From an uncultured Planctomycetia bacterium (GTDB lineage Bacteria > Omnitrophota > Gorgyraeia > Gorgyraeales > Gorgyraeaceae): 64,000 nucleotides of DNA. The DNA is taken from contig CAZMID010000002.1 of assembly GCA_964566255.1 (NCBI GenBank), positions 30,923 to 94,922 on the forward strand. Reading direction: 5' to 3'. Positions 5,748 through 61,481 of the stretch are shown one piece after another (the first letter of the stretch is position 1; each line of letters starts with the position of its first letter). A program made the translations under genes and the position numbers. The notes below the pieces were generated by a model. It was not told the DNA's origin, ran no database searches, and saw only the letters and a list, made by a program, of their open reading frames with translations.

Positions 5748-5783
5748 GCGATGACATCATCTACTTTATGTGGATGATTCTCC

Positions 5784-7178: not shown

Positions 7179-7191
7179 ACGGATTAATAAA

Positions 7192-12848: not shown

Positions 12849-12852
12849 GAAT

Positions 12853-36145: not shown

Positions 36146-36156
36146 GGGGATTTGAA

Positions 36157-42570: not shown

Positions 42571-43506
42571 ATGAAGAAAAAATCAAAAATATTCATTACG
42601 GGACATAATAGTATGCTGGGTTCTGCTCTATTCAATCGGTTAAAAGAAGGAGGATTCAGTAACTTAGTCGCGAAGGATTCATCAGAACTTAATCTTACGA
42701 ATCAGAGGGCCGTTGATTCATTTTTCAAAAAAGAAAAGCCCGAATATTGCTTTTTAGCTCCAATAAAAGAAGGCGGGATACTTTTAAATATGATGCATCC
42801 TGCTGAATTAGTTTATCAGAACATTGCCACACTAAGTAATGTTGTTCATTCTGCATGGGAGGCAGGGGTTAAGAAGCTTTTATTTTTTGCCAGCTCCTGT
42901 GTTTATTCTAAGGACTGCCCTCAACCTATGAAGGAAGAATATTTATTGACAGGTCCATTAGAGCCGACCAATGAGGCGTATGCAATTGCTAAGATTGCAG
43001 GGATTAAAATGTGCCAGGCATACAATGCTCAATTTGGTACACGGTTTCTTTCTGTGATACCTGCTACTGTTTTTGGACCAGAAGATAATTTCGATTTTAA
43101 GACTTCTCATGTGATATCTGCATTGATTAGGAAATTTCACGAGGGCAAGATAAAAAATGAGCCTGTTGTTAATATCTGGGGGACAGGGAAACCTCGCAGG
43201 GAATTTATATATGTGGACGATTTGGTAGATGCAAGTCTGTTCTTTATGCAGGAAGATAATCCTGTAGAACTTATTAATATGGGTAGTGGTATGGATGTAT
43301 CTATACAAGAGCTGGCTGAGTTGATAAAAGGACTTACTGGTTTTAAAGGTAAGATAGAATTTGATACTACTAAACCCGATGGTGTCTTAAGAAAGTTGCT
43401 TGATAGTCATCGTTTAAATTCTTTAGGTTGGAGACCGAAGGTCGGACTTCAAAAAGGATTGAAGAATACTTATCAGTGGTATACAAATAAAAAGGTTAAA
43501 AGGTAA
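42571..43506 (+). CDS. fcl: GDP-L-fucose synthase (GDP-4-keto-6-deoxy-D-mannose 3,5-epimerase/4-reductase)
   Basis: [40 protein letters not shown] and [11 protein letters not shown] match E. coli Fcl motifs ([38 protein letters not shown]). Confidence 0.85.
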   Translation: [311 protein letters not shown]

Positions 43507-43516
43507 AATTCTAAAA

Positions 43517-44530
43517 ATGGTGAAAAAAAATAACCCAATTCAGTTTGATTCAAGTGTGAGCGATATCCAGGCTAAGGTATTGATTGAGCTTTACAGGATA
43601 ATGCTGAGAATAAGAAGACTCCAGCTTAAAATAGAAGATGAATACCCGAAGGACGAGATGAAAACTCCTGTACATCTCTGTTTGGGACAAGAGGCAATAC
43701 CTGCAGGTATTTGTATTAATTTGAATAAAGAAGATTATGTTTTTAGTAACTACCGAGGCCATGGTCATTATCTTGCTAAGGGTGGTGATTTAAAGGCGCT
43801 TATTTCAGAGTTATATTGCAGGGAAACTGGTTGTTCTCATGGGCGTGGCGGTTCAATGCATTTGATAGATACCTCTGTAGGATTATTAGGTTCTTCTTCT
43901 ATTGTGGCTGGCGGTATACCTATTGCTACAGGATGTGGTCTTGCATCTTTATTGCAGAAAGATAATCGTATAGCAGTTGTATTCTTTGGAGATGGGGCAG
44001 TAGATGAAGGCGTATTATATGAGAGTATCAATTTTGCAGTGCTTAAGAAGCTCCCTGTCATATATGCCTGTGAAAATAATTTTTATGCAGTGTGTTCCCC
44101 ACAAAGACATAGGCAGCCCCTTGATAATATATATAGACGTTTTGAAGGATGCGGTATAAATAGTTATAAGGTTGATGGCAACAATGTTATTGATGTCTAT
44201 CGCATAGCAAATAAAGTCATTAGTGATGCCCGTAACAAAAAAGGCCCTTCATTGATAGAGTTTAGGACATATCGTTGGAGGGGGCATTCTGGAGGCGAAT
44301 CCGATATAGATTTAGGCTATAGATCTCAGGAAGAATTAGATGAATGGATGAAAAAGTGCCCTGTTAAAAATTTTGAGAGTTTCTTACTTAATAATCATTT
44401 AATTACGAATGAGGAGATTAAATCTATAGAGGGTGTTTTTGATAAGGAGATAGATGAGGCTTTTTTGTTTGCTAAAAATAGTCCTTTGGCAGATGAAAAA
44501 GATTTATTGAAATATCTTTATAGTACTTAA
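43517..44530 (+). CDS. Thiamine-diphosphate-dependent dehydrogenase E1 component, alpha subunit
   Basis: …VHLCLGQEA…, TPP-binding GDGA…NN (FFGDGAVDEGVLYESINFA…ACENNFYA), 337 aa. Confidence 0.8.
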   Translation: MVKKNNPIQFDSSVSDIQAKVLIELYRIMLRIRRLQLKIEDEYPKDEMKTPVHLCLGQEAIPAGICINLNKEDYVFSNYRGHGHYLAKGGDLKALISELYCRETGCSHGRGGSMHLIDTSVGLLGSSSIVAGGIPIATGCGLASLLQKDNRIAVVFFGDGAVDEGVLYESINFAVLKKLPVIYACENNFYAVCSPQRHRQPLDNIYRRFEGCGINSYKVDGNNVIDVYRIANKVISDARNKKGPSLIEFRTYRWRGHSGGESDIDLGYRSQEELDEWMKKCPVKNFESFLLNNHLITNEEIKSIEGVFDKEIDEAFLFAKNSPLADEKDLLKYLYST

Positions 44531-44549
44531 TAAGGATTGGAGTGAGGTT

Positions 44550-45605
44550 ATGAAAATCAGCTTTGATTGGGACAAGAAGAGTATAGAAAAAGAAGAACGG
44601 GGATTTGAACACAAATTAGGGGAGAAAGAAAGAAAGATTTCTTATGGCAATGCTTTATACGAAACATTTGATCAGTTGCTTTCGACGGACAAGCGTGTTT
44701 TTGTTATGGGGCAGGGAGTGGATGATCCTTTTGGCATGTTTGGTGCGACACTGGATCTCCATAAGAAATATGGATCGGATAGGGTATTTGATACTCCATT
44801 ATCCGAGGAGGGTTTAACAGGGATAGCAGTAGGTGCAGCCCTTGCAGGTATGCGACCAGTTTATATGCATAACCGTCCCGACTTTCTTTTGCTTGCAATG
44901 AATCAAATTGTTAATCATGCATCAAAATGGAGTTATATGTTTGGAGGTAAAATAAATGTGCCAATTGTTATATGGGCCTGCATAGGTCGTGGCTGGGGTT
45001 CAGGTGCTCAACATTCTCAGGCCTTACAGGGTTTGTTTATGCATATTCCTGGCATAAAACTTGTTATGCCGAGCACCCCTTATGACGCCAAAGGCCTATT
45101 AACTTCAAGTGTTCTTGATAATAATCCTGTGGTAATTTTGGAACATCGCTGGCTATTTAAGCATACAGGACATGTCCCTGAAAAGTTATATACCATACCT
45201 TTTGGTAAGGGCATAATTAGAAAAAAAGGAGATAAAGTTACTATTGTTGGTGCCTCTTATATGGTTATAGAAGCAGTAAGGGCAGCAGAGGAGCTTCAGG
45301 AAAAAGGTATTGATGTAGAGGTTATAGACCTTCGGACATTAAAACCTTTAGATGAAGAGATAATTTTAAATTCAGTCAAAAAAACTGGCAGATTACTTAT
45401 CGTGGATATGGGCTGGAAGACAAGCGGCATAAGTGCGGAAATTGCAGCAATGCTGTCAGAAAAAGGATTTCAATATCTAAAGAAACCAATTAAGCGGGTT
45501 ACTTGTCCAGATATACCAACGCCCGCGGGTTATACATTAGAGAAAAAGTTTTATCCTGGGCCTGCTGAAATAGTAGAGGCTGTAATGGAGTTAATGAAGC
45601 GATGA
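44550..45605 (+). CDS. 2-oxoacid dehydrogenase E1 component, beta subunit (transketolase-like pyrimidine-binding and C-terminal domains)
   Basis: …GQGVDDPFGMFGATLDLHKKYG…RVFDTPLSEEG… is typical of E1β. 351 aa. Adjacent to E1α. Confidence 0.8.
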   Translation: MKISFDWDKKSIEKEERGFEHKLGEKERKISYGNALYETFDQLLSTDKRVFVMGQGVDDPFGMFGATLDLHKKYGSDRVFDTPLSEEGLTGIAVGAALAGMRPVYMHNRPDFLLLAMNQIVNHASKWSYMFGGKINVPIVIWACIGRGWGSGAQHSQALQGLFMHIPGIKLVMPSTPYDAKGLLTSSVLDNNPVVILEHRWLFKHTGHVPEKLYTIPFGKGIIRKKGDKVTIVGASYMVIEAVRAAEELQEKGIDVEVIDLRTLKPLDEEIILNSVKKTGRLLIVDMGWKTSGISAEIAAMLSEKGFQYLKKPIKRVTCPDIPTPAGYTLEKKFYPGPAEIVEAVMELMKR

Positions 45606-46828
45606 ACGAGAGGCAAGATAAAATGACTAAGAAATTAAAAGTTCCTTTTGGGGCACTTACTATAACTGATACTTCCAAGAGACTTATTAAAGAAATACTT
45701 GATTCTAATAGGGTTTCAAGTGGCAAGTATGTAAGGGAATTAGAGAAGCGTTTTGCTGAGTTGACAGGAACCAAAGAGGCAGTTGCAGTTAGTTCTGGAA
45801 CAGATGCTGATGCCTTGGCCTTGGCAGTGCTTTATGATGTTGGCGCAAAAAGAGGTGATGAGGTTATTGTGCCAGCCTTGTCTTTTGTGGCAACTGGAAA
45901 TGCAGTCTTACAGGCAGGTTTTAAGCCTGTTTTTGTAGATATTGAGAAAGAAACGTTGAATATAGATCCGTCGAAGATCGAAAATGTCGTAACAAAAAAG
46001 ACAAAGGCCATAATACCGGTTCATCTTATGGGCAAACCTGCTGATATGGACGCGATAAATGGGATAGCAAAACAGCATAATCTATATGTCATTGAAGATG
46101 CTGCTGAGGCCCATGGGACAGTTTATAAAGGCAGGAATGTTGGGACCTTAGGTGATATGGCTGCATATAGTCTGTACGTAGCTCATATGATATCAACCAT
46201 TGAAGGTGGAATAGTTACAACCAATAATTCAGAATTTACAGAGATTTTGAGATCTCTGAGGTCGCATGGCAGGGCATGTAAATGCAAAGAATGTGTTTTA
46301 AACGTTGGCTTCGGTGTTTGCAATAAGAGATTTACCAAAGGTATGGATGTAAGGTTTATATTTGAACGCATAGGTTTTTCAACTAAGATGAACGAATTAG
46401 AAGCAGCCATTGGATTGGGAAGCATAGAGATCTATTCGCAAATTTTGAAGAAAAGACGCGAAAATCTTTTATACCTTATGGATAAATTTAGCGAATTCGA
46501 AGAGTACCTTTATACTGTTAAAGAAGGGCCTGATGAAGAAATCGGCCCCCACGCCTTTCCTATAATACTTAGAGAGGATGTCAAGTTTAACCGTGATAAA
46601 CTCAGCCGTTTTTTGGAAGAACACTGGATTGATTCACGCAGCCTTTTCTTATCAATGCCTACTCAATGTCCTGGTTTTAAGTATCTAGGACATCGCTTAG
46701 GTGAATTTCCTAATGCTGAGTATATGGGTGAAATGGGGCTACATATAGGTATCCATCAAGATGTGGGCAAAGAGGAAATGGATTATGTCATTAGCGTTAT
46801 AAGAGATTTTTGTAGAAACATCGGTTGA
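45602..46828 (+). CDS. DegT/DnrJ/EryC1/StrS-family PLP-dependent sugar aminotransferase (with a Cys-rich insertion)
   Basis: …SGKYVRELEKRFAELTG…, AYSLYVAHMISTIEGG and LRSHG match the fold. A roughly 12-aa insertion carries four Cys (RACKCKECVLNVGFGVC) before the conserved …GFSTKMNELEAA segment. Confidence 0.8.
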   Translation: MNERQDKMTKKLKVPFGALTITDTSKRLIKEILDSNRVSSGKYVRELEKRFAELTGTKEAVAVSSGTDADALALAVLYDVGAKRGDEVIVPALSFVATGNAVLQAGFKPVFVDIEKETLNIDPSKIENVVTKKTKAIIPVHLMGKPADMDAINGIAKQHNLYVIEDAAEAHGTVYKGRNVGTLGDMAAYSLYVAHMISTIEGGIVTTNNSEFTEILRSLRSHGRACKCKECVLNVGFGVCNKRFTKGMDVRFIFERIGFSTKMNELEAAIGLGSIEIYSQILKKRRENLLYLMDKFSEFEEYLYTVKEGPDEEIGPHAFPIILREDVKFNRDKLSRFLEEHWIDSRSLFLSMPTQCPGFKYLGHRLGEFPNAEYMGEMGLHIGIHQDVGKEEMDYVISVIRDFCRNIG

Positions 46829-48300
46829 ATGGTATAAAAAGAAGCCTGTTGGGAGAAAAAATGCACGAGATATTAAATGATGTCAACCTGTTGAAAAAAT
46901 ATGATGTATACGCGTATGACTATACAGACTATCCTCACAAGAGTTATTGGAGTGAGGATTTAGGCGATAAGGATTATCGCAATACATTGAAGAGTATCTT
47001 TTTGGACAAAAACCATGCGCCGGCATTATTTTACATCCACGTCCCTTTTTGTAAAAAACTTTGTTACTATTGTATTTGCCATAAGGAGATAGCGCCTAGC
47101 TATGACAAGGTGTTGAAGTATTTTGAGAATTATCTTTATGTCGAGATTGATATGCTTCGGCGTTTATTCGAAGAAAATTCGCTAAGGCCGAATTTCAAGG
47201 AGATATATATTGGAGGTGGGACGCCTACATTATTAGAAGAAAAAGAGTTTGATAGATTAATGGCTTTAGTAGGTTCTTTTTGTGATATTAAGAATATGAA
47301 TAGGTTTTGCATAGAGATTGATCCGCGCGTATGTTCTGTTGAAAGATTAAAGTATTATGCTAAGAAGGGTGTGACTACGATCTCCATTGGGGTTCAGGAT
47401 TTAGATATTAATGTACAGAGGGCTATCAATAGGACTCAATCGCCTGAGATGATTGAAAAATTACTTTCCCCAGAAATACGCAAGACATTCAGTAGTATAA
47501 ATTTTGATTTACTCATAGGACTACCTAATCAAACGAGAACTTCTATCAGAAAAACAATGGAAAAAGTTATATCTATGGCCCCGGATCGTATTTCCATGAC
47601 ATACTTTCATTATGCACCAAAATTCTATCCACACATGAAGAAGCTGAAAGAAAGAGGTCTTTTACCAGATTCCGTAGAAAAAAAGCATATTTTTGCAGAA
47701 GGTCTTGATGCTATTACTAAGAATGGCTATGTTCGAACAGGATTTGAACATTTTGCTAAGCCTGGTGACGTTGTGGCTGAAGCAGTCAGGATGAATAAGG
47801 CCAATTATACATCCTTAGGGGCAGTGAGCGGAGACTGTTGTAGTGTTGTGGCTGTAGGGCGTTCAGGCCATGGTATGCTCGGTGACAGTTATCTATTTCA
47901 GAATCACTATGAACAAGAGCAGTATGGAATAGCTTTATCACGGGGTAAATTTCCTATATATCGGGGGCACAAAATGAGTGCAGATGATGTATTGAGGCGG
48001 GATATTATTAAAGGATTGCGCACATATTTCGTCATTAATATCCCTGAGGTTGAAAATCGGATTAATACTCATTTCAGTGAGTATTTTAGTGCAGAACTTG
48101 ACGTTCTGAATGAGTTTATAAAGGATGGCCTTGCGGTATTGACAAGAGAAGAGCTAAAGATTACAGAGAGGGGTAAGCATTTTTCAGGACTTATTGCTAG
48201 TATTTTTGATAAATATCAAAAATCTCCTAGATGTAACAAAGAGGTTGCTTCTGAAGCAATGTCGCATCAGTCAGGAGAACAAGTTAGTGGAGGTTGTTAG
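46825..48300 (+). CDS. HemN-like radical SAM enzyme (oxygen-independent coproporphyrinogen oxidase family or class C radical SAM methyltransferase-like)
   Basis: YIHVPFCKKLCYYC has the HemN-type Cx3CxYC pattern (CKKLCYYC). It is followed by a GGGTP-like SAM motif (IYIGGGTPTLL) and a HemN_C-like C-terminal region. Confidence 0.72.
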   Translation: MNGIKRSLLGEKMHEILNDVNLLKKYDVYAYDYTDYPHKSYWSEDLGDKDYRNTLKSIFLDKNHAPALFYIHVPFCKKLCYYCICHKEIAPSYDKVLKYFENYLYVEIDMLRRLFEENSLRPNFKEIYIGGGTPTLLEEKEFDRLMALVGSFCDIKNMNRFCIEIDPRVCSVERLKYYAKKGVTTISIGVQDLDINVQRAINRTQSPEMIEKLLSPEIRKTFSSINFDLLIGLPNQTRTSIRKTMEKVISMAPDRISMTYFHYAPKFYPHMKKLKERGLLPDSVEKKHIFAEGLDAITKNGYVRTGFEHFAKPGDVVAEAVRMNKANYTSLGAVSGDCCSVVAVGRSGHGMLGDSYLFQNHYEQEQYGIALSRGKFPIYRGHKMSADDVLRRDIIKGLRTYFVINIPEVENRINTHFSEYFSAELDVLNEFIKDGLAVLTREELKITERGKHFSGLIASIFDKYQKSPRCNKEVASEAMSHQSGEQVSGGC

Positions 48301-48303
48301 TTA

Positions 48304-50139
48304 ATGGCAGATTCTGAGAAGATTTTCAAGGAATTGAAAGAAAAATTATTTCCTAAAGGCTGTAAGAGGATACTTTTTGTTGTTCCTCCAGAGTCTCCTG
48401 AAGCCCAGTTTGATATAGATCTTGTGCTTCGAAAACGTTACCCGTGTTTTCCTCCTTATGGCTCTGGTATGCTTAGTCGACAGTTGAAGGATCGTGGTTA
48501 TGAGACAAATATCATTGATTTGAATTTTCTTATGCTTCAGGCAGTTCATAAGGATTCAGCAAACTTTAATTATCAGATTTGGCAGCAACAGTTAACCCAG
48601 GAGATTAATAGGTTTCGTCCAGACTTTATTGGTCTAAGTGTGATGTTTTCGTTTGCTCATGACTCAATGATTAAGGTATGTAAATATATCAAAAAAAGAC
48701 ATTCGGGAATTCCTATAATAGTTGGTGGAATTTACGTCTCTAACGATATCGAGCGTATCCTACGAGAATGTCAGGAAATTGATTTTGGAATGTCTTTTGA
48801 GGCAGATGTTAGCTTCCCCGATCTTATTGATGCCATTAATGAGAAGCTCCCAGTTGACAAAATTGCTCAATTGAGTGTTCTTCGTAACGGTGAATGTATT
48901 ACATGGAAGAATCGTACAGTACCCGATATCAACAGTCTAAATGTACAGCCGGACTATTTAGATCTGCCTATAGGTGAATATTCAAGATACGGAGCTCTTG
49001 GCAACTATAATTTTCTACTAGATGATAAGAAGGCCACTTCAGTGCAAGGTAATCGGGGGTGTCATGCTCGGTGCAGTTTTTGCTCTGCAAAAGAGTATCA
49101 TGGGGGTGGTGTAAGAAGTCGCAATGTTACTGCGGTTGTAGATGAGATTCAGTTTTTATATGAAACTTATGGGATTAGTCATTTCACATGGCTTGATGAT
49201 GATTTGCTCTTTAATGAGAAACGTGTCATAACGTTATTCACTGAGATTATAAAGCGCAATATTAAAATTACCTGGGATGCATCAAATGGGCTTATTGCCT
49301 CAGCCATTACACCTGAGATTATGACACTGGCTTATGAGTCTGGATGCATTGGGGTACATCTTGGGATTGAGTCAGGGAATGAGCAGATTCTTAGGTCTAT
49401 TCGTAAACCCAGCGGGAGGAGACATTTCTATCGCGCCAAAGAACAACTAGATAGGTACCCGCAGATCTTTGTAAAAGGGTATCTCATTATTGGTTTTCCA
49501 AATGAGACATTAGGTCAGATAATGGATACAGTTAAAATGGCATGTGAACTGGAGTTTCATTGGTATCCTTTACAATTCCTTTCTTTGTTACCCCGCACTG
49601 ATATTACAATGAACGCTGTTAAGCAGGGTTTGATTGGGAAAGATGATGTTTCATCTCAGTATCATGGTGAGACAGCTGGTTCAAAGAGTGCTAGTGGCGG
49701 CTCCCTGCGGCAGAGAGAGATTGAAGAAAAACTAGAGGCAAAAGAGTTTAAAAATATATTTGAAGAAAAAAGTATGGACTATGTACCTACGCTAGAGGAG
49801 TTGCGTGATATATGGTTTGTAGCTGATTATAAGATTAATTATGAAAAATTGTTGCACGTGAATGATCCAATCAAACTTAGCAACATTAGAAAGATGCTTA
49901 TGGAGATCGCGGATAAATATACATTTGAAAACAGTCTGGGTAATTTGTTCATGGCAGTTTTAGAACAAAAACTTGGTCAAAAAGAAGAAGGCATGCGCAG
50001 ACTCCTTCTCGCAGAACAATATCTCAGTGAATCTAAGTATTGGCAGAAAAGATATGAAGTATTAGGAATATATAACGTTGTTGATGCAGTAAAGAGAGGT
50101 TGTTTTTTAGCAAAATATGATAAAAGTTGCATTCGTTGA
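48304..50139 (+). CDS. B12-binding-domain radical SAM enzyme with about 150-aa C-terminal helical extension
   Basis: …PIIVGGIYVS…, then GNRGCHARCSFCSA. The C-terminal region is helical and TPR-like (…LGQKEEGMRRLLLAEQYLSESKYWQKRYEVLGIY…). Confidence 0.72.
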   Translation: MADSEKIFKELKEKLFPKGCKRILFVVPPESPEAQFDIDLVLRKRYPCFPPYGSGMLSRQLKDRGYETNIIDLNFLMLQAVHKDSANFNYQIWQQQLTQEINRFRPDFIGLSVMFSFAHDSMIKVCKYIKKRHSGIPIIVGGIYVSNDIERILRECQEIDFGMSFEADVSFPDLIDAINEKLPVDKIAQLSVLRNGECITWKNRTVPDINSLNVQPDYLDLPIGEYSRYGALGNYNFLLDDKKATSVQGNRGCHARCSFCSAKEYHGGGVRSRNVTAVVDEIQFLYETYGISHFTWLDDDLLFNEKRVITLFTEIIKRNIKITWDASNGLIASAITPEIMTLAYESGCIGVHLGIESGNEQILRSIRKPSGRRHFYRAKEQLDRYPQIFVKGYLIIGFPNETLGQIMDTVKMACELEFHWYPLQFLSLLPRTDITMNAVKQGLIGKDDVSSQYHGETAGSKSASGGSLRQREIEEKLEAKEFKNIFEEKSMDYVPTLEELRDIWFVADYKINYEKLLHVNDPIKLSNIRKMLMEIADKYTFENSLGNLFMAVLEQKLGQKEEGMRRLLLAEQYLSESKYWQKRYEVLGIYNVVDAVKRGCFLAKYDKSCIR

Positions 50140-51553
50140 TCTAATTAAAGAACTTCATGACCGGCATGGCATTTATTCACTGTCAAGTGCCATGAAGCAA
50201 CATGGTGTTGAGGTTTATTTTGTCGGGGAAAGAACTTATAAAAGGGCACTACGCAGAGTAAAAGAAATCAGACCAGATTTTTTACTCTATTCTTCTTTTT
50301 CCTCAACTATGTCAGTTTATACTGAGTTTGACAAAATGTCCAAAGAGTTTGTTAAGGCAAGATCCCTAATAGGAGGGCCTGGGCCGACATTTGATTGGAA
50401 GAGCATAGAGAATTCTTCTATTGATAGTGCATGTGTTGGTGAAGGAGAATTTGCATTAGTGGATTTTATTAAGAGTAACTTTCATACTACAAAAAATATA
50501 TTTAGAAGAGAAGAGCTTGCACCTTCTGGATTTTATCCTCTTGTAGAGTTGGATAGATTACCTTTTCCTGACAGGGATGTGGTTTATAGAGAAGATTCTA
50601 TACTTAGAAATCAACCATCTAAACAGTTTCTTTCTGGTAGAGGATGTCCTTATCAGTGTACATATTGTTTTAATCATAAGTTTAGAGATATTTTTAAAGG
50701 TCTTGGTCCATCTGTAAGAAAGAAGAGTCTTGGATATTTATTTGATGAGATACGCTATGTAAAGAAAAGATATCCGCTTTCAAGTATTGTATTTAACGAT
50801 GATACTTTCATTTTAGATAGAAAGTGGTTTGTAGAGTTTTGCGAGCGGTTTCCAAAAGAAATTGGTCTGACGTACACTTGTAATATAAGGCCTAATTTGA
50901 TTGACGAAGAAGTAGTCAGGTTATTAAAAGACAGTAATTGCACAGGTGTAAACTGGAGCATAGAGTCAGGAGATGATTACTTAAGAAATGAGGTACTTAA
51001 AAGAAATATAACTATTGAGCAGATATTGAATACATCGGAACTTTTAAGAAAGTATAAGATTTCGTATAGAATTGGAAATATTATTGGTTTGCCTGGAGAA
51101 AATTTTGAACAAATGCTTAAAACATTAAAGTTAAATATAAAGGCCAGACCTTCTATGGCATTTAGTGGCATTTTTGTCCCTTTTCCTGGTTTGGCTTTAA
51201 CAGAATATGCGATTTCCCACGGTTATTATAAGCCAGACACAAAGCGAGGTTTACCAGATGGCCGTACAAGATGCCTCATGAATGTAAGTCAAAATGAGAA
51301 TCTAAAGATTCAAAAACTATTCTGTTTATTTCCATTATTTGTGAAATATCCAGTTTTATTTGATAGAGATGCCTTGCGGAAAACGTTGTTTTCTATACCT
51401 TTATGTATATTAAAAATATTATTTACGTTTTATTATGGCTTTCACATGATGAAACTTCATATTCCAAAGGTATCTTTCTTCCAGAAATGTCAAATAGCCA
51501 TGAGATTTATTATAAATTTATATATATCGAATAAAAGGTATAGAAGGAAATAA
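50117..51553 (+). CDS. B12-binding-domain radical SAM enzyme
   Basis: N-terminal B12-binding-like fold (…LIGGPGPTF…VGEGE…), then SGRGCPYQCTYCFN. Confidence 0.72.
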   Translation: MIKVAFVDLIKELHDRHGIYSLSSAMKQHGVEVYFVGERTYKRALRRVKEIRPDFLLYSSFSSTMSVYTEFDKMSKEFVKARSLIGGPGPTFDWKSIENSSIDSACVGEGEFALVDFIKSNFHTTKNIFRREELAPSGFYPLVELDRLPFPDRDVVYREDSILRNQPSKQFLSGRGCPYQCTYCFNHKFRDIFKGLGPSVRKKSLGYLFDEIRYVKKRYPLSSIVFNDDTFILDRKWFVEFCERFPKEIGLTYTCNIRPNLIDEEVVRLLKDSNCTGVNWSIESGDDYLRNEVLKRNITIEQILNTSELLRKYKISYRIGNIIGLPGENFEQMLKTLKLNIKARPSMAFSGIFVPFPGLALTEYAISHGYYKPDTKRGLPDGRTRCLMNVSQNENLKIQKLFCLFPLFVKYPVLFDRDALRKTLFSIPLCILKILFTFYYGFHMMKLHIPKVSFFQKCQIAMRFIINLYISNKRYRRK

Positions 51554-51567
51554 AAAAGGGGATTATC

Positions 51568-52752
51568 ATGAAAAGACTATCGAAGATTACAGATGGATTG
51601 ATTGGCCAACCTATGTTTAAACTTCTTGTAAAAGTAAAGGAGATGGAAGAAAGAGGCGCTAGGATCTTTCATTTTGAAATAGGGGATTCGGATTTTAGGG
51701 CGCATCAACATATTGTAGAAGCAACCAAAAAGGCGCTCGATAATGATAAAACTCATTATGTTTCATCAATAGGTATATCAGAATTAAGAGAGGCTATTTG
51801 CGATTCTACAGAAGAGACATTGGGTTTTAGACCAGATCTAGACCAGGTGGTTGTTATGCCGGCCAATGGTATTATTGATTTTGTAATGCGCTGTGTTGCT
51901 GAACCAGGTGACGAGGTTCTGTATCCTGACCCAGGGTTTTCTACATATCTAGCTGTAACTAATTATACAGGCATTAAAAAGGTCGGGATCCCTGTAAGGG
52001 AAGAAAATAGATTCCACATGGAACCAGAAGAAATAAGAAGACGGATAACTGATAAAACGCGACTTCTAATTATTAACTCTCCACAAAACCCAACAGGTGC
52101 TGTGATGAGCAAAAAAGATGTAGAAGAAATCGCCTTAATAGCCCAAGAGAATGATATCTATATTTTGAGTGATGAGATATATTCAAAGGTTATTTATGGG
52201 AAGACACATTATTCACCCAGTTTTCTAGATAGATGTTTAGACAGGACTATTATTTTAAATGGGTTTGCAAAAAATTATTCAATGCCTGGATGGAGATTAG
52301 GTTATGCGATAGGTCCAAAAGAGGTTATCAAAAAGATGGGCATCCTTTTTCAGACAATTTATTCTTGCACACCTCCTTTTATTCAATATGGAGGGATTGC
52401 AGCACTAAGAGGAGATCAGAGAGCTATCGGAGAAAGGATACAGAAATATAAAGCACTAAGAGATCTAATTGTTAAGGGGTTAAATGAGATTCCTGGGGTA
52501 TCTTGCATGGTTCCAGAGGGTGCTTGTTATGTTTTTCCGAATATAAAAGGGACTGGGATGGACAGTGTTCAGTTTGCTGATTTTGTACTGGAGAAGGCAG
52601 GAGTAGCCCTTTTACCTGGAACGTGTTTTGGTGAGTATGGTGAGGGACATGTAAGACTTTGTTACACGAGACATCCAGAAGTTATTAAAGAGGCATGCGA
52701 AAAAATGAAAAAGGCATTCATGGAGAAGAAAAATGAAGTCTGTATTCATTAA
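51568..52752 (+). CDS. Class I/II PLP-dependent aminotransferase (aspartate aminotransferase-like fold type I)
   Basis: Length and motifs (…IINSPQNPTGAV…, …NGFAKNYSMPGWRLGYAIG…) match the pattern with the conserved PLP-binding Lys. The C-terminal HVRL is present. Confidence 0.8.
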   Translation: MKRLSKITDGLIGQPMFKLLVKVKEMEERGARIFHFEIGDSDFRAHQHIVEATKKALDNDKTHYVSSIGISELREAICDSTEETLGFRPDLDQVVVMPANGIIDFVMRCVAEPGDEVLYPDPGFSTYLAVTNYTGIKKVGIPVREENRFHMEPEEIRRRITDKTRLLIINSPQNPTGAVMSKKDVEEIALIAQENDIYILSDEIYSKVIYGKTHYSPSFLDRCLDRTIILNGFAKNYSMPGWRLGYAIGPKEVIKKMGILFQTIYSCTPPFIQYGGIAALRGDQRAIGERIQKYKALRDLIVKGLNEIPGVSCMVPEGACYVFPNIKGTGMDSVQFADFVLEKAGVALLPGTCFGEYGEGHVRLCYTRHPEVIKEACEKMKKAFMEKKNEVCIH

Positions 52753-53887
52753 TGATATTACATTGAGAGATGGGGAACAGGCTGCAGGAGTTAATTTTTT
52801 CCCTGAGGAAAAATTAAAGATTGCCGAAAGCTTGGTTAAATTGGGCGTCCCTATAATTGAAGCTGGGTTTCCAATAGCTTCAGACCAGGACGCTAAAGGC
52901 GTGGAGCTGGTTGCTAAAGAATTCGGAAAAGATATTATCATTAGCGCTATGTGTAGAGCTGTATTTAAAGATATAGAAGTAGCGAGTAAATCATTAGGAG
53001 ATGCCCCTAAAAGAAGGATACAGGTTGTTATGGGTACCTCCGACATACATTTAAAGCATAAGTTTAACATATCAAGAGAAAAGGCCTTAGATATCTCAGT
53101 AGAGTCGGTTAGATATGCTTGTAAGTTTTCTAACGATATAGAGTTTGCGGCCGAAGATTCTACAAGAAGCGATCTAAGCTATCTTATAGAGGTGTGCAAG
53201 GCTTGTGTTGCAGCAGGTGCAAAGACAATAGAACTTCCTGATACTGTTGGATATGCTACACCAGAAGAATATTTCAATATGGTAGCTTCAGTTGTAAAAT
53301 CCCTTCCTTCAGAAGTGATTGTTTCTACGCACTGTCATAATGATCTTGGTATGGCAACAGCAAATACACTCGCAGGCATTCAGGCAGGTGCCAAGCAGGC
53401 AGAAGTTACCATAAATGGAATTGGAGAAAGAGTTGGGAATGCATCTTCAGAAGAGGTCATTATGGCTTTAAGGGCGAGGAGAGATTTTTATAAGATCGAT
53501 GTAGACTATGTCAATGCCAAAGAGATTATGAAGTTGAGTAAGTTGATTGAGGAACTTTCCCAGATAAAGATCGCTCATAATAAGGCTGTTGTTGGAAAAG
53601 GGGCATTTTTACATGAATCAGGCATACATCAAGATGGGCTTATAAAGTCACCTCAGACGTATCAACTTTTAAACCCAGGAGACATTGGTCTAGAGGGGTA
53701 TGAGTTAGTTATAGGAAAACTCTCAGGGAAGAATGCCTTAAAAGAGAGGATGAATATTATTGGGATTGGGTTAGGCGATAAAGATATGGCAGATTTTTCT
53801 AGGTTTTTTAAAGATCATGTTGCAAAAAAGAAATTTATTACAGATGATGATATATCAAATCTATACAAGAGATGGAAAAACAGCTAG
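52733..53887 (+). CDS. HMGL-like DRE-TIM metallolyase (2-isopropylmalate/homocitrate/citramalate synthase family) lacking a LeuA regulatory domain
   Basis: INDITLRDGEQAAGVNF… matches the (L)RDGEQ motif, and …HCHNDLGMATANTLAGIQAGA… matches HxH. It is 384 aa, catalytic TIM barrel plus a short subdomain. Confidence 0.75.
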   Translation: MKSVFINDITLRDGEQAAGVNFFPEEKLKIAESLVKLGVPIIEAGFPIASDQDAKGVELVAKEFGKDIIISAMCRAVFKDIEVASKSLGDAPKRRIQVVMGTSDIHLKHKFNISREKALDISVESVRYACKFSNDIEFAAEDSTRSDLSYLIEVCKACVAAGAKTIELPDTVGYATPEEYFNMVASVVKSLPSEVIVSTHCHNDLGMATANTLAGIQAGAKQAEVTINGIGERVGNASSEEVIMALRARRDFYKIDVDYVNAKEIMKLSKLIEELSQIKIAHNKAVVGKGAFLHESGIHQDGLIKSPQTYQLLNPGDIGLEGYELVIGKLSGKNALKERMNIIGIGLGDKDMADFSRFFKDHVAKKKFITDDDISNLYKRWKNS

Positions 53888-54693
53888 TAGAAATATTTAA
53901 AAAAATGTGTTTGATCCGCTATTTTGAGCTCCAGGTTATTGAGCCCAGAAAGAATGGTCTTACGCCTGGCCCTGTTTATTTGTCAGTAGGACAGGAGGCT
54001 ATTTCTAGCGCAATTTCAATGCTTACAAAAGGATATTCAGTTTTTGCACAGCATCGCTGTCACTCAGTGTATTTAGCATATGGTGGAGATCCTGGACGTC
54101 TTGTAGACGAGTTGTTTGGTCGAAGTTCAGGGTGTTGTGGGGGTAAGGGTGGCTCACCGTGCATACAAGATTTAAATATTCCTATGTATGGGCATCATGG
54201 GTTAATAGGAGAGAATATACCTTTGGCGACTGGTTATGCATTGGCTACGGGAAAACCTACAGTTGCCTATTTTGGCGATGCAGCATCTGAAGAAGATTAT
54301 GCATTGACTTCATTTGGTTTTGCTACAACTCATAAATTACCTATTTTATATGTTTGCGAAGATAACGATTTATCCATTTTAACTCCTATTAAGGACAGAA
54401 GAGATTGGAATGTTCATGATGTGACCACAGCTATGGGATTAAAGACCGAAGTGATTGTAGATGATCCTAAAGTAATCCTGGATACTGTTGGGGGGCTGAT
54501 TGAAAAGCTTCCTGCATTTGTCAATATTCAGACCACCAGGCACCTTTGGCATGAAGGGGGAGGGATCGATGGTCCTCCTGTGAGAGATAGAATAGCTGAG
54601 ATGAGAAAAATAATACCCGATGCATCAAAAATAGAAGATGAAATAAAAACATATGTTGAGGAACTATGGCAAAGACAGTCGCAGAAACTATAA
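53872..54693 (+). CDS. Thiamine-diphosphate-dependent E1 alpha-like subunit (short form)
   Basis: …CLIRYFELQV…PVYLSVGQEAI… matches the E1α N-terminal motif. TPP-binding is YFGDAASEEDYALTSFGFA…CEDND. It is 273 aa. Confidence 0.68.
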   Translation: MEKQLVEIFKKMCLIRYFELQVIEPRKNGLTPGPVYLSVGQEAISSAISMLTKGYSVFAQHRCHSVYLAYGGDPGRLVDELFGRSSGCCGGKGGSPCIQDLNIPMYGHHGLIGENIPLATGYALATGKPTVAYFGDAASEEDYALTSFGFATTHKLPILYVCEDNDLSILTPIKDRRDWNVHDVTTAMGLKTEVIVDDPKVILDTVGGLIEKLPAFVNIQTTRHLWHEGGGIDGPPVRDRIAEMRKIIPDASKIEDEIKTYVEELWQRQSQKL

Positions 54694-55553
54694 AAGAAGT
54701 TACTCGCAGGCATTTAGAGGAAAACAAAGGTTTATTGTTCGGGCAGTCCATAACAGCTGTTGGATGGGTAAATAATACAGTGCCTGACTGTAGAAATATT
54801 GTTGAATTTCCTATGTCTGATGTGTCCAATATGGGGATAGCTTGTGGTGCAGCAATTAGTGGGCGGCGACCTATTATTGTTATTCGTTTTCAGGATTTTA
54901 TGTGGCTCAATAGCAGTACCTTGGTAAATTATGCTGCCAAGTCCAAGGATATTATGGGCATACCGACGCCAATATTTGTAAGGGCTTTGGCCTTGGATAA
55001 TGCAGGCTGTGTCCATTCAGGTGTCCTCCACGGTATATTTATGCATATGCCGGGTTTCAGGGTTTGTTCTCCTATGACACCAAAAGAATATGAGGAAGCC
55101 TGGGATGATTTTATGGCTCATGACGATCCAATGATTGTTAGCGAACATAGAAAGAGTTTCAATAATACTGAGGAGTTTGCAAATACAAACAATAAAGCAG
55201 ATGTAACATTGATTTCGATATCATCGGCACGTTTTAATGTGATTAAGGCTGCATCTATACTTGAGAAAGAAGGAATTAGATGTAATCTTGCTCATGTTAT
55301 GTGGCTTAAACCTTTCAAAAAGGATCATATCTTGGAGGCGTTGAACAATAGCAAAAGAGGTTTGGTAATAGATGCTGGTTTTGAAATATGCGGGGCTTCT
55401 CAATCTATAGCTTATGAACTTATGTTGGAGACTGGTAAGCCTGTGAAGGCTTTAGGATTAGAAGATCGTTCAGTAGGTGTGGGTCTTGAATCCCGAAACC
55501 CAACACCATCTGCTGAAAGAATAGTTGCAGGAGTCAAAGATTTTTTACAATAG
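54666..55553 (+). CDS. E1 beta-like / transketolase pyrimidine-binding subunit (short form)
   Basis: Its position after the E1α-like gene, the fold-compatible pattern (…GIACGAAISGRRPII…) and 295 aa support the call. The assignment is weaker than for the pair at 43517 and 44550. Confidence 0.6.
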   Translation: MAKTVAETIKEVTRRHLEENKGLLFGQSITAVGWVNNTVPDCRNIVEFPMSDVSNMGIACGAAISGRRPIIVIRFQDFMWLNSSTLVNYAAKSKDIMGIPTPIFVRALALDNAGCVHSGVLHGIFMHMPGFRVCSPMTPKEYEEAWDDFMAHDDPMIVSEHRKSFNNTEEFANTNNKADVTLISISSARFNVIKAASILEKEGIRCNLAHVMWLKPFKKDHILEALNNSKRGLVIDAGFEICGASQSIAYELMLETGKPVKALGLEDRSVGVGLESRNPTPSAERIVAGVKDFLQ

Positions 55554-55562
55554 AGGTAACTC

Positions 55563-56930
55563 GTGTTAGATATTTTATTAGTAAATCCTAGTAATCGACT
55601 TTCTCAATTTGGTGGGGTTTCCAAATATGCTACTATCGCTCAGCCATTAGGAATAACTATGCTTGCTGCTTACATAAGAAAGCATAGCTTTTCTGTTGAG
55701 ATCCTTGATGCAGAGGTTTTAGATCTTATCCCTGAGAGGGTTATAGACGAGATCGTGCGCCGCAACCCAAGATTTGTAGGTATCACTGCTTTTACGACAA
55801 AGATGACAGCAGCTAATAGAATATTTACTCTTTTAAAAGAAAAGGCACCTTATATAAAAACTATTATTGGAGGACATCATCCCTCTGCAATACCTGAAGA
55901 GACATTAAAAGAGTCAAATGTCGATTTTGTTGTTAAAGGTGAAGGGTACAAATCTATAGTAGATATACTTAGTGGGAGGAAAGACCCAATTCAAACAGCA
56001 GAACTGATGAAGGATATAAATGAACTTCCTCTTCCTGCGTGGGATTTGTTGCCTATGGATAAATATAGAGCTCATCACTGGCATACATGGGGTATTGGTC
56101 AGGCGAATTCATGTGCCTTGATCTATACATCTCTCGGATGCCCTTTTCAATGTAAATTCTGCAGTGTTTCTGTAGTCTATGGCAAGAGGATTTATAGAAA
56201 AAAGAGCCCTGAGCGCGTAATCCAGGATTTTGACGTGCTTTATAATAAGTATCACATTAAGCATATTGAGATTATAGACGATACATTTACCTTGGATAGG
56301 ACTCATGTAGAAAAGATATGTGACCTTTTGATTGAACGGAAGTACAATTTTAATATGTGGGCATTTTCAAGGACAGACACCACAGATCCTTATCTTATGG
56401 AGAAGATGAAAAAGGCAGGTATTAATTGGGTTTTTATGGGGATAGAAGCTGGTAATAGTAAAGTTTTGGATTCTGTGCTCAAAAAACAAAATTTGGAACA
56501 GATCCGTAATGCTATTGATATTGCGCATAAAGCTGGAATGAATGTCGGCACAAATTACATATTTGGCCTTCCTGATGACAGCTTTGAGACTATGCAGGAT
56601 ACACTTGATTTAGCATTGGAGCTTAATACAGAATGGAGTAATTTTTTTATAGCCATGCCTTATCCAGGGACAGAGATGTATGGTAAATCCAGAGCTGAAG
56701 ATTTACCTCAAGAATGGGAACAATATGGCTTCTTTGCACCGAATGCAAGGACATTACCTACGAGATATGTAAGTGGTGAGGATGTGGTGAGATTTAGAGA
56801 TAAGGCATTCCAGACTTTTTTTTCAAATCGGAATTATCAGGATATGATAGAAAAAAAGTTTGGCATGAAAAAATATATACAAGATATGCTGAAAAAGAAA
56901 ATCGGAAGGGATTATGAAACAAAGAGATAA
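55563..56930 (+). CDS. B12-binding-domain radical SAM enzyme (paralog of the ORFs at 41115 and 56914)
   Basis: GTG start. …IIGGHHPS…, KYRAHHWHTWG, TSLGCPFQCKFCSV. Confidence 0.74.
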   Translation: MLDILLVNPSNRLSQFGGVSKYATIAQPLGITMLAAYIRKHSFSVEILDAEVLDLIPERVIDEIVRRNPRFVGITAFTTKMTAANRIFTLLKEKAPYIKTIIGGHHPSAIPEETLKESNVDFVVKGEGYKSIVDILSGRKDPIQTAELMKDINELPLPAWDLLPMDKYRAHHWHTWGIGQANSCALIYTSLGCPFQCKFCSVSVVYGKRIYRKKSPERVIQDFDVLYNKYHIKHIEIIDDTFTLDRTHVEKICDLLIERKYNFNMWAFSRTDTTDPYLMEKMKKAGINWVFMGIEAGNSKVLDSVLKKQNLEQIRNAIDIAHKAGMNVGTNYIFGLPDDSFETMQDTLDLALELNTEWSNFFIAMPYPGTEMYGKSRAEDLPQEWEQYGFFAPNARTLPTRYVSGEDVVRFRDKAFQTFFSNRNYQDMIEKKFGMKKYIQDMLKKKIGRDYETKR

Positions 56931-58362
56931 TTTACTGATATTAAAGCCAGGCGCACAAGAGGAACTCTATCAAAAATTGAGTGAATCTTTATCAGGACTT
57001 GAGCCATCGTTATGGTCAGCATTGCTTGCTGCGTTCATAAGGGAGAAAGGCTTCAAGGTTAATATAGTAGATGCCGAAGTAGAATATGAAAGGTTGATAC
57101 CTGTTGTAACAGCCGAAATGCCAAAATTGGTTGCTATTGTAGCCTCTGGAACAAATCCTTCAGCATCTACAATGAATATGGTAGGCGTAAGAAATTTAGT
57201 CCAGGATATAAAAAGAGTGAATAAGGATTTACCTATTATATTAATAGGTCTTCATCCATCAGCATTACCCAGGCAGACTTTATTAGAAGAACCTGTGGAC
57301 ATGGTATGTGAGGGAGAGGGATTTTATACGTTATTGGATTTACTTTCAGATGTTGATTATAAAGATATTAAGGGTTTATGGTATAGAAAAGGAAAAGAGA
57401 TTCTTTCTAATCCTAGAGCTGAATTGGTTGACCCCAATGAACTACCTATGCCGGCATGGGAACTGATGTCTATGCATAAATATAGAGCTCATAATTGGCA
57501 TTGTTTTGGTCATACAGACGAAAGAAGTCCTTACGGAGTTATCTATACAAGCCTGGGTTGTCCTTTCAATTGTTCGTTCTGTTGCATAAATGCTATTTTT
57601 GGAGTACACAAAATACGATATAGAAACCCTAAGAAGGTCGTAGAGGAAATAGATTATCTTGTGAAGAACTATAATATTAAAAATTTTAAGATTATTGATG
57701 AAATGTTTGATTTAAATGATAACCATGTGATTGAGCTTTGCGATCTTCTTATAGAGAGGGACTATGGTTTAAACATATGGGCTTATACTAGAGTCGATAC
57801 AATGAATGAGAAGAAATTGAAAAGAATGAAACAGGCTGGGATAAATTGGCTGGGCATAGGTTTTGAGTCTGGTAATAGAGGAATTCGAGATACCGCTACT
57901 AAGGGTAGATTTGATAATGAGAAAATGAGACAGGCTGTAAAGATGATAAGAGATGCAGATATATATCTGGGTGGGAATTTTATCTTTGGCCTTCCCGGTG
58001 ATTCCCTTGAAACCATGCAGCAGACCTTAGATTTAGCAAAGGAATTTAATTGTGAATATGCAAATTTCTATGTTGCTATGGCTTATCCCGGATCCAAACT
58101 TTATGAAGAAGCCGTGGCTAAAAATCTTCCTTTGCCTGATTCATGGCTTGGTTATTCACAGTTTAGTTACGAGACACAACCTTTACCGACAGAATCTCTA
58201 TCTCCTTCTGAAATCCTGCGTTTCAGGGATAAGGCCTTTAATGAATTCTATAGCAGCAAATCCTATCAGGATATGATTTTGAAGAAATTTGGAGAAGAGA
58301 CACTTCAGCATGTAAAAGATATGCTTAAACATAGATTAAAAAGGCAATTATTGAGTGATTAG
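56914..58362 (+). CDS. B12-binding-domain radical SAM enzyme (paralog of the ORFs at 41115 and 55563)
   Basis: …LIGLHPS…, KYRAHNWHCFG, TSLGCPFNCSFCCI. It overlaps the upstream paralog by 17 nt. Confidence 0.75.
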   Translation: MKQRDNLLILKPGAQEELYQKLSESLSGLEPSLWSALLAAFIREKGFKVNIVDAEVEYERLIPVVTAEMPKLVAIVASGTNPSASTMNMVGVRNLVQDIKRVNKDLPIILIGLHPSALPRQTLLEEPVDMVCEGEGFYTLLDLLSDVDYKDIKGLWYRKGKEILSNPRAELVDPNELPMPAWELMSMHKYRAHNWHCFGHTDERSPYGVIYTSLGCPFNCSFCCINAIFGVHKIRYRNPKKVVEEIDYLVKNYNIKNFKIIDEMFDLNDNHVIELCDLLIERDYGLNIWAYTRVDTMNEKKLKRMKQAGINWLGIGFESGNRGIRDTATKGRFDNEKMRQAVKMIRDADIYLGGNFIFGLPGDSLETMQQTLDLAKEFNCEYANFYVAMAYPGSKLYEEAVAKNLPLPDSWLGYSQFSYETQPLPTESLSPSEILRFRDKAFNEFYSSKSYQDMILKKFGEETLQHVKDMLKHRLKRQLLSD

Positions 58363-58395: not shown

Positions 58396-59100
58396 ATGAA
58401 AGTAGCATTGTTGATCTTAACGCTTAACGAAATCGAGGCAGTAACTCAAGTTATGCCTAGAGTCAAGAGGGAATGGGTTGATGAAATTATTTTTGTGGAT
58501 GGGAATTCTACTGATGGGACGATAGACTATATAAAGGAGCACAATTACGGTTTATTGTTAGAAAAAAAACCTGGGGCACGAGAGGCCATGGTAGAAGCCA
58601 TCAATAATATGGAGAGTGACGTAGTCATTACTTTTAGTCCAGATGGTAATTGTATTCCCGAAGTTATTCCTAAATTGATTAAAAAGATGCAAGAAGGTTA
58701 TGATATGGTTATTGCCTCGCGCTACGCAGAGGGAGCAAAGAGTTACGATGATACGCGTATAACTGCTTTTGGGAATTGGATGTTCACAACGCTAATAAAT
58801 ATTTTATATGGAGCTAAATATAGCGATACTATGGGTGTTTATCGCATATTTAAAAAGAATCTTATAAAAGATTTAGATTTAGACAAGGATATTACATATA
58901 CAACCCCTGAAAAATTATTCAGGACAAAACTGGGATGGGATCCTATATTGTCTGTTCGGGCAGCTAAAAGAAAATTAAAGGTTTCCTATGTTCCTGCTGA
59001 TGAACCTTTGAGGATTGGTGGCAAACCGAAACTGCAGGTATTAAAATGGGGAGCTGGATATTTATTTCAAGTTATAAGAGAAAGATTTTTGTGGCGTTAG
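58396..59100 (+). CDS. GT2 glycosyltransferase, Dpm1/ArnC-like (paralog 3 of 3)
   Basis: LTLNEIEAVTQVMPRVKREWVDEIIFVDGNSTDGT…SPDGNC…ASRYAEGAKSYDD is collinear with the ORFs at 24533 and 37899, through to the C-terminal …RIGG…KLQV.KWG motif. Confidence 0.75.
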   Translation: MKVALLILTLNEIEAVTQVMPRVKREWVDEIIFVDGNSTDGTIDYIKEHNYGLLLEKKPGAREAMVEAINNMESDVVITFSPDGNCIPEVIPKLIKKMQEGYDMVIASRYAEGAKSYDDTRITAFGNWMFTTLINILYGAKYSDTMGVYRIFKKNLIKDLDLDKDITYTTPEKLFRTKLGWDPILSVRAAKRKLKVSYVPADEPLRIGGKPKLQVLKWGAGYLFQVIRERFLWR

Positions 59101-61454: not shown

Positions 61455-61481
61455 GAATAAGATTAGAATATAAAGGAGGGT

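Follow-up and report, generated by a model that had tools for sequence, protein, structure and literature searches.

A HemN-like radical SAM clade that accompanies B12-binding radical SAM genes and probably tailors glycans rather than making heme

The gene considered here encodes a HemN-like radical SAM (S-adenosylmethionine) protein and lies in a 64,000-nt stretch of DNA, called the window below, from an uncultured bacterium of the Omnitrophota (contig CAZMID010000002.1, assembly GCA_964566255.1). The protein is very probably a glycan-tailoring enzyme without a role in heme synthesis, coupled to B12-binding radical SAM proteins. An earlier note, made from the sequence alone, had pointed to an open reading frame (ORF) with HemN-like radical SAM motifs at 46825-48300 on the + strand, and this identification is borne out by the cluster motif CKKLCYYCIC, the SAM-binding motif EIYIGGGTP, the Pfam domains Radical_SAM (E=2.7e-19) and HemN_C, the NCBIfam hemN model TIGR00538 (332.8 bits over the full length, a marginal pass of the 324.95 cut-off) and the structure of Escherichia coli HemN (1OLT), which aligns over residues 6-455 with E=5e-68 and 32% identity. 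An AlphaFold2 model (pLDDT 93.1) gave 1OLT as its top Foldseek match (TM-scores 0.83/0.91, rmsd 2.2 Å), the next match reaching a TM-score of 0.35, and scores on the NCBIfam STM4012 (161) and HemZ (115) models were far below cut-off. The earlier note also had the gene overlapping the stop codon of its upstream neighbour by 4 nt; this overlap arises only from the mechanical start at TTG 46825 and is rejected as an artefact. The likely true start is ATG 46861, which has a GGGAGA Shine-Dalgarno sequence 5 nt upstream, agrees with the public 479-aa gene call and with the N-termini of homologs, and puts 32 nt between the stop codon of the upstream gene (46826-46828) and the start.

Comparison with canonical HemN proteins indicates that the radical SAM site is intact while the substrate pocket and the N-terminal trip-wire are remodelled. 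The protein has the architecture of HemN proper, the oxygen-independent coproporphyrinogen III dehydrogenase (CgdH): a CX3CX2CXC cluster motif, the trip-wire and HemN_C. Across the clade of homologs described below, Y56, H58, C62, C66, C69, C71, GGG(S/T)P, E145, Q172, R184 and D209 (E. coli numbering) are invariant, and the clade by this alignment retains all residues for radical SAM turnover and most of those that hold the second SAM; at the second site Y56 (pi-stack), E145, D209 (equivalent to D196 of the class C methylase NocN) and the S238 equivalent are kept. Two motifs, GPRYTSYPTA and RNFQGYTT (residues 316-323), are reported to be required for CgdH activity and are used to recognise active CgdH (PMC10320005), and both are lost. 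The first is replaced by AYDYTDYPHK (4/10 identical; clade consensus x[D/M]Y[T/I][E/D]YPHK) at positions that in canonical HemN are conserved at 91% (P), 88% (R), 96% (T), 94% (S) and 87% (T). In place of the second stands YTSLGAVS (1/8 identical; clade consensus [Y/W][N/T][S/A]LG), the canonical conservation being R 97%, N 85%, F 97%, G 97% and Y 92%. Clade-specific residues are also found at canonical Y240, Y242, A243, H244, I329, L159 and M378, the last being an arginine conserved at 99%.

Homologs with these features form a clade that is compact but taxonomically scattered. The best 120 database relatives are 39-62% identical to the window protein, and their named sources are Omnitrophota, Elusimicrobia, Magnetococcus and unclassified Alphaproteobacteria metagenome-assembled genomes (MAGs) and Magnetospirillum sp. 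UT-4, all labelled HemN. A scan of species-representative genomes found the clade in at least four further assemblies (Yanofskybacteria of the candidate phyla radiation (CPR), Pelagibacter, a Sedimentisphaerales MAG and a short Pacearchaeota-binned contig), with at least 76 further HemN homologs among the matches listed. In a neighbour-joining tree (the one method used), rooted on E. coli HemW and covering at most a minority of the characterised class C enzymes, 123 clade sequences were monophyletic in 50/50 bootstraps and stood apart from 72 canonical HemN sequences including that of E. coli. Identity averages 46% among clade sequences, 41% among canonical ones and 32% between the two groups. 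In a set of 1.84 billion cluster representatives the family as a whole gave 4,898 matches at E<=1e-30, and the clade signature was confined to about a dozen 50%-identity clusters. On TIGR00538 canonical HemN proteins score 527-808 bits and the clade 327-414 bits, and because the latter values lie above the cut-off its members are automatically named HemN. A sister group (L015-L018, 436 bits), from Desulfuromonadales, Phycisphaerales, Paracoccaceae and Woesearchaeota assemblies, has canonical-like motifs (GPYYTSYP, RxFxGY) with R22 changed to Y and adjoins one to four large B12-binding radical SAM genes; around twenty 50%-identity clusters carry its intermediate signature. Two clade copies occur in one locus in Pelagibacter sp. 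Uisw_130 (L013:5391-6809 and 11723-13150) and in GCA_964373055.1 (L092:1993-3405 and 5307-6713). No description of the clade was found in the literature searched on HemN-family or radical SAM enzymes and surface sugars, and a 2022 review of the HemN family notes uncharacterised bacterial subclades, none of them linked to sugars (PMC10114718). We rate the clade as a new functional variant inside a known enzyme family.

The genomic context of the clade points in the same direction as its motifs. Neighbourhoods within 10 kb were compared for 15 cellular and three phage clade loci and for 72 canonical hemN loci. A B12-binding radical SAM gene is present in 15/15 cellular, 3/3 phage and 0/72 canonical loci. 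The other shared neighbours of the cellular loci are DegT-family genes (11/15), epimerase-type short-chain dehydrogenases/reductases (SDRs; 11/15), short E1 alpha (9/15) and E1 beta (9/15) genes of thiamine diphosphate (ThDP)-dependent enzymes, PhyH dioxygenases (8/15) and GHMP kinases (7/15), each of them in 0/3 phage loci and, apart from E1 alpha (1/72), in 0/72 canonical loci; several clade loci sit on related contigs, which makes the counts less than fully independent and is a point against the explanation given below. Of the 22 tabulated clade gene copies, 15 have a B12-binding radical SAM gene on their own strand no more than 60 nt away, and each locus holds from one to seven such genes. 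In the compact cassette L098 the order is methyltransferase, DJ-1, cupin, E1 alpha, E1 beta, RmlC-like, ColD-like, three SDRs, PhyH, HemN-like, B12-binding radical SAM and 4,6-dehydratase. A non-heme, glycan-related role, as the earlier note proposed, is upheld by the loss of both CgdH motifs, by the separate clade and by a sugar and B12-binding radical SAM context that recurs in different phyla and is absent from all 72 canonical loci.

Two other readings of the protein are touched by these results. One is that it is a genuine but divergent CgdH whose position in a glycan locus is coincidental. It passes the TIGR00538 equivalog cut-off over its full length, is 32% identical to 1OLT with a TM-score of 0.91, and has homologs named HemN in public records, but both motifs reported to be needed for activity are gone, the clade scores 327-414 bits against 527-808 for canonical proteins and separates from all 72 of them, the 64-kb window has neither a heme gene nor another gene of the HemN family, the carriers include a CPR bacterium and phages, some loci hold two copies, and HemN of the canonical type occurs in other Omnitrophota genomes (L038, L047, L064); we consider this reading very improbable. 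The other, which by analogy with the HemW chaperone would make the protein a tetrapyrrole-handling helper that delivers or conditions the corrinoid of the B12-binding radical SAM proteins, we consider improbable to a lesser degree. It would suit the fact that the sole universal neighbour is a B12-binding radical SAM gene of variable subfamily (611-, 455- or 507-type), that loci with anything from one to seven of these make do with a single HemN-like gene, that the sister group L015-L018 likewise adjoins them and that minimal phage modules retain the pair; tetrapyrrole binding is a property of HemN-family proteins, among which HemW serves as a chaperone (PMC10114771). The invariant SAM-I residues, the fourth cysteine and the SAM-II contacts Y56, E145 and D209, however, argue for turnover chemistry, the protein reaches 120.2 bits on the HemW model TIGR00539 where the cut-off is 205.4, and no cobalamin-binding motif was identified in it. 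To our knowledge most B12-binding radical SAM pathways need no helper.

The kind of sugar involved is indicated by the gene immediately upstream, which the earlier note had called a DegT aminotransferase. Membership of the DegT family stands (Pfam), whereas the aminotransferase function, by sequence, does not: the best solved relative of the protein is the Yersinia E1 3-dehydrase (3BCX, E=1e-59), and alignment of the window segment SLYVAHMISTIEGG with SFYPAHHITMGEGG of E1 puts a histidine in the column of the lysine that binds pyridoxal phosphate (PLP), a column fixed by the H220K variant 3BB8. The protein also has a Cys-rich insert like the iron-sulfur site of E1, in which the first E1 ligand is not conserved. 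Histidine replaces the lysine in 10/11 DegT-family genes of the clade cassettes, which are of the E1 type or of the ColD type (SFYFGHHxTTIEGG). Methylation of an amino sugar beside an aminotransferase is accordingly rejected, as the neighbour carries the dehydrase histidine, and the amino sugar that had been suggested as substrate gives way to a 3,6-dideoxy-4-keto or branched sugar, which is more likely because the neighbour is a 3-dehydrase by sequence. In a separate part of the window, a DegT-family ORF at 63041-64000, which runs off the window end, retains the PLP lysine (SFYATKTISTGEGG) and is a candidate sugar aminotransferase.

Yersiniose, erwiniose, caryophyllose and other acyl-branched 3,6-dideoxyhexoses are made by a ThDP enzyme that joins a 2-oxo-acid donor to a nucleoside diphosphate (NDP)-4-keto-3,6-dideoxyhexose, followed by reduction (PMC9306805), and the gene set of the cassette matches the route given there. 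In the cassettes SDRs and ThDP-dependent E1 alpha/beta pairs are conserved together, the ThDP family differing from that of YerE and ErwE. Homologs of the short E1 pair of the window (E<=1e-15, at least 50% query coverage) occur in 9/15 cellular clade loci, with 41-62% identity where measured. From gene content the cassette probably makes a branched 3,6-dideoxyhexose and not an amino sugar.

The HemN-like enzyme would on this evidence be a catalytically intact two-SAM enzyme, derived from true HemN and re-tooled for a non-porphyrin substrate, that together with the adjacent B12-binding radical SAM protein, encoded in the same operon, tailors an unusual surface sugar, probably in consecutive steps. 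A sugar would be activated to a nucleotide sugar, converted to its 4-keto-6-deoxy form and deoxygenated at C-3 by the upstream His-type E1/ColD-like dehydrase; a ThDP-dependent E1 alpha/beta enzyme would then add an acyl branch at C-4, to be followed by reduction; the radical SAM enzymes would modify the branched sugar; and a small family 2 glycosyltransferase (GT2) would move it to polyprenyl phosphate for onward transfer by membrane glycosyltransferases. In the reaction of the HemN-like enzyme itself, cluster-bound SAM would yield a 5'-deoxyadenosyl (5'-dA) radical that turns the second SAM into a methylene radical; the latter would pass a one-carbon (C1) unit to the 4-keto or acyl-branched sugar, at a carbon that is sp2 or enolisable, while the sugar is nucleotide-linked or polyprenyl-linked. 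In class C methylases such a methylene radical adds to an sp2 carbon (PMC12871812). C1 transfer by the enzyme, predicted from sequence, is a tentative proposal to which we give somewhat less than an even chance, and the explanation as a whole, of a HemN-derived two-SAM enzyme acting in a sugar pathway with a B12-binding radical SAM partner by C1 transfer of the class C type, is likewise somewhat less likely than not.

Several observations weigh against this explanation. An affinity to class C enzymes, which the earlier note had mentioned as family members outside heme synthesis, is not supported, the closest characterised relative being HemN proper: the protein still scores above the TIGR00538 cut-off (332.8 against 324.95 bits), reaches 135.6 bits on the ChuW/HutW model of NCBIfam (cut-off 400), stays below the cut-off on HemW, and aligns with NocN at 63 bits over residues 49-260 only, that is, in its N-terminal half. 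Known class C methylases are nearer to HemW (PMC10114718), NocN lacks the trip-wire domain (PMC12871812), and the sp2 carbons that class C enzymes target (PMC12871812) are scarce in sugars. At the second SAM site F310, Q311 and I329 are changed in the clade, and the equivalent of NocN R153 is a threonine in the window protein, with R or K in 76% of the clade. The partner B12-binding radical SAM subfamily also differs between loci (611-, 455- and 507-type), which weakens a fixed two-step model. A search of the PDB with the partner sequences gave only remote matches (MgmA, AprD4) that did not distinguish methylase from non-methylase.

These points bear on a rival that gives the enzyme the same place in the sugar pathway with the chemistry of HemN: the methylene radical of SAM-II would relay abstraction of hydrogen from an sp3 carbon and the substrate radical would be oxidised, with no carbon transferred. 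The sugar could become desaturated or gain a ketone, or a carboxyalkyl branch, derived for instance from a 2-oxo-acid donor, could be oxidatively decarboxylated and end as an alkene. HemN uses the identical relay, the methylene radical on its second SAM abstracting the substrate hydrogen (PMC10114718; PMC10114771). The clade descends from HemN proper and keeps the fourth cysteine and the trip-wire, which NocN does not have, sugar and branch carbons are mostly sp3, up to seven B12-binding radical SAM proteins in the loci could cover sp3 methylations, and ThDP enzymes, the synthase-like HMGL protein and the class I/II aminotransferase could provide carboxylated donors. Against this rival, a ThDP enzyme or any other evident origin for a carboxylated branch is missing from the phage modules and from some compact cassettes, and E1 alpha/beta pairs typically use pyruvate or branched-chain donors, which would leave no carboxylate; neither an auxiliary cluster nor a partner that could accept electrons was observed. 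Taken alone this rival is rather unlikely, though oxidation or decarboxylation of the HemN type is nearly as likely as C1 transfer because the clade stems from HemN proper and the substrate is rich in sp3 carbons. C1 transfer is slightly favoured because the phage modules are rich in methyltransferases and lack ThDP enzymes.

The phage modules just referred to are three contigs (L091, L094 and, from IMG/VR, L095) whose clade members are 48-51% identical to the window protein. Phage hallmarks are present on L091 (Mu-F, Acb1 and Acb2/Tad1) and L094 (Mu-F, Acb1 and a head-maturation protease), and L095 is viral by its IMG/VR label alone. On all three the HemN-like gene adjoins a B12-binding radical SAM gene whose product is 47-49% identical to that of window 55563-56930. 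L091 and L094 also carry GT2-like, two Methyltransf_24 and small radical SAM proteins. Beyond the pair, the three contigs showed no homolog of the sugar-cassette proteins of the window, no nucleotide-sugar genes and no ThDP enzyme; since only the pair is shared, it can be taken as the portable core. PHROGs holds no family for either phage protein, and the GenBank phage and PLSDB plasmid collections yielded only canonical or HemW-type homologs of at most 33% identity, several of them host contamination. Five other IMG/VR contigs (L096-L100) carry the entire branched-sugar cassette, in which a B12-binding radical SAM gene of the 611 type comes directly after the HemN-like gene. Their viral status is doubtful and we do not accept it, as a scan of ten flanking ORFs in L098, the one contig checked, showed no phage hallmark (eight sugar or small-molecule-metabolism families, one PD-(D/E)XK nuclease and one group-1 glycosyltransferase). 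Whether the HemN-like protein and its B12-binding radical SAM partner form a mobile two-enzyme radical module, spread across the glycan loci of different lineages and phages and carrying out a novel modification of the sugar carbon skeleton, we regard as evenly balanced.

Coordinates of the HemN-like gene and the neighbouring features are collected in Table 1. The window opens with DnaK/DnaJ, the DnaJ having named relatives of 60-79% identity that without exception belong to Candidatus Omnitrophota, and from about 9.4 kb onward is a surface-glycan locus, and the placing of the HemN-like gene inside such a locus in the earlier note is confirmed by the genes around it: LptD, two Ugd (UDP-sugar dehydrogenases), RmlA/RmlC-like proteins, a GDP-mannose 4,6-dehydratase (GMD), Wzi, a 966-aa Wza, a glycosyltransferase of the GT-C fold (PMT_2) and three small GT2s resembling polyprenyl-phosphate hexose transferases. 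Also present are two radical SAM-SPASM proteins, a split transketolase, many SDRs and seven B12-binding radical SAM proteins. Every real-looking ORF of at least 150 aa reads in the + direction, and across the window, whose GC content is 32-40%, the GC skew stays positive (0.10-0.29). Intergenic gaps are mostly less than 35 nt or negative, which fits a long operon; promoter-like and terminator-like sites were not enriched in a scan of the window, which is compatible with one long operon and otherwise uninformative.

Table 1. Features of the HemN-like gene and its surroundings; positions refer to the window unless a contig is given
Feature	Position	Strand	Remarks
HddA-like GHMP sugar kinase and HddC-like sugar-1-phosphate nucleotidyltransferase	27950..29679	+	sugar activation
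GDP-fucose-synthase-like SDR (epimerase/reductase)	42571..43506	+	
ThDP-dependent E1 alpha and E1 beta	43517..45605	+	alpha 43517-44530, beta 44550-45605
DegT-family protein with His at the PLP-Lys position	45602..46828	+	E1 (RfbH/AscC)-type NDP-4-keto-6-deoxyhexose 3-dehydrase by sequence; public call starts at 45623
HemN-like radical SAM gene	46861..48300	+	479 aa; mechanical ORF begins at TTG 46825
N-terminal trip-wire motif AYDYTDYPHK	46912..46941	+	replaces CgdH motif GPRYTSYPTA
Cluster motif CKKLCYYCIC	47050..47079	+	CX3CX2CXC including the fourth Cys typical of HemN proper
SAM-binding motif EIYIGGGTP	47200..47226	+	in the HemN-like gene
YTSLGAVS	47806..47829	+	replaces CgdH motif RNFQGYTT (residues 316-323)
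611-aa B12-binding radical SAM	48304..50139	+	3 nt downstream of the HemN-like gene; conserved partner
478-aa B12-binding radical SAM	50117..51553	+	
Class I/II aminotransferase and short isopropylmalate-synthase-like HMGL protein	51568..53887	+	51568-52752 and 52733-53887
Short E1 alpha/beta pair	53872..55553	+	
Two B12-binding radical SAM proteins (455 and 482 aa)	55563..58362	+	455-aa type partners the phage-borne HemN-like genes
Small GT2 resembling polyprenyl-phosphate hexose transferases	58396..59100	+	
Two polytopic membrane proteins	59136..63008	+	772 aa, 10 transmembrane (TM)-like segments (59136-61454); 508 aa, 8 TM-like segments (61482-63008)
HemN-like/B12-binding radical SAM in phage-type contigs	L091:10001-11395; L094:10001-12838; L095:9971-12816		

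The two polytopic membrane proteins downstream of the small GT2 had no Pfam or NCBIfam match, and a 778-aa homolog follows a GT2 in L092; they may be transferases of the lipid-linked sugar, of a new GT-C-like kind, or polymerases. Positions 5784-8478, just upstream of the glycan locus, encode a pair of neighbouring GGDEF diguanylate cyclases, of which one has a GAF domain. A sub-cassette at 29676-33786 comprises the two radical SAM-SPASM proteins, a CehA/McbA-like metallohydrolase and a DUF362 protein with a 4Fe-4S ferredoxin domain, and has no counterpart in the other clade loci. The split transketolase, with its N and C halves encoded by separate genes (35285-37098), adjoins a B12-binding radical SAM gene and an SDR and could, going by its family, carry out two-carbon transfer on a sugar.

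As the clade passes the curated hemN threshold, its members are named as heme enzymes, although the motifs are missing and, in the loci examined, the genes are found only in sugar and B12-binding radical SAM cassettes, and recognising it corrects the inference of heme pathways in MAGs. HemN-like proteins are, as far as we know, notoriously mis-annotated, and each newly characterised branch has so far given new radical chemistry. The clade is also a testable entry to unstudied, heavily C-modified branched deoxy-sugars on uncultured bacteria and a lead on phage-borne radical SAM modules. If the proposed role is correct, this would be the first sugar-acting enzyme of the HemN-proper lineage, the sugar modification would be one absent from any characterised pathway, and the phage copies would represent a new kind of radical chemistry for remodelling host-surface or virion glycans. 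We judge the interest to be moderate to high for radical SAM enzymology, for the glycobiology of uncultured bacteria and for heme-pathway annotation.

Among known systems, the yersiniose (YerE/YerF), erwiniose (ErwE/ErwF) and caryophyllose pathways resemble the cassette in having a 3-dehydrase, a ThDP enzyme and a reductase, and an HMGL-type protein may supply the donor; unlike YerE, the ThDP enzyme of the window is a heterodimeric E1 alpha/beta, and the cassette adds the HemN-like protein, one to seven B12-binding radical SAM proteins and often PhyH, none of which figures in the acyl-branched pathways in the part of PMC9306805 consulted. Class C methylases (NosN/NocN, TbtI, ChuW/HutW, Jaw5 and C10P) share with the HemN-like protein the HemN-family fold, a non-heme role and a probable second SAM site, at which a Tyr pi-stack and an Asp bridging both SAMs appear to be conserved, but their targets are carbons, aromatic or sp2, in peptides, polyketides or heme and not in sugars. 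HemW likewise combines the HemN-family radical SAM core with a role outside heme biosynthesis; unlike the HemN-like protein it is without the N-terminal domain and the fourth cysteine (Phe in E. coli HemW). The nearest likeness is to E. coli HemN/CgdH itself, with which the protein shares the trip-wire N-terminus, the partial TIM barrel, HemN_C, CX3CX2CXC with the fourth cysteine, GGGTP, Y56, H58, E145, Q172, R184 and D209. It departs from E. coli HemN in the two exchanged motifs and in the replacement of Y240/Y242/H244, I329, L159 and M378 by clade-specific residues (for example R387 and Y166), and from canonical hemN genes in a context that, in the loci examined, is made up of sugar and B12-binding radical SAM genes and never of heme genes.

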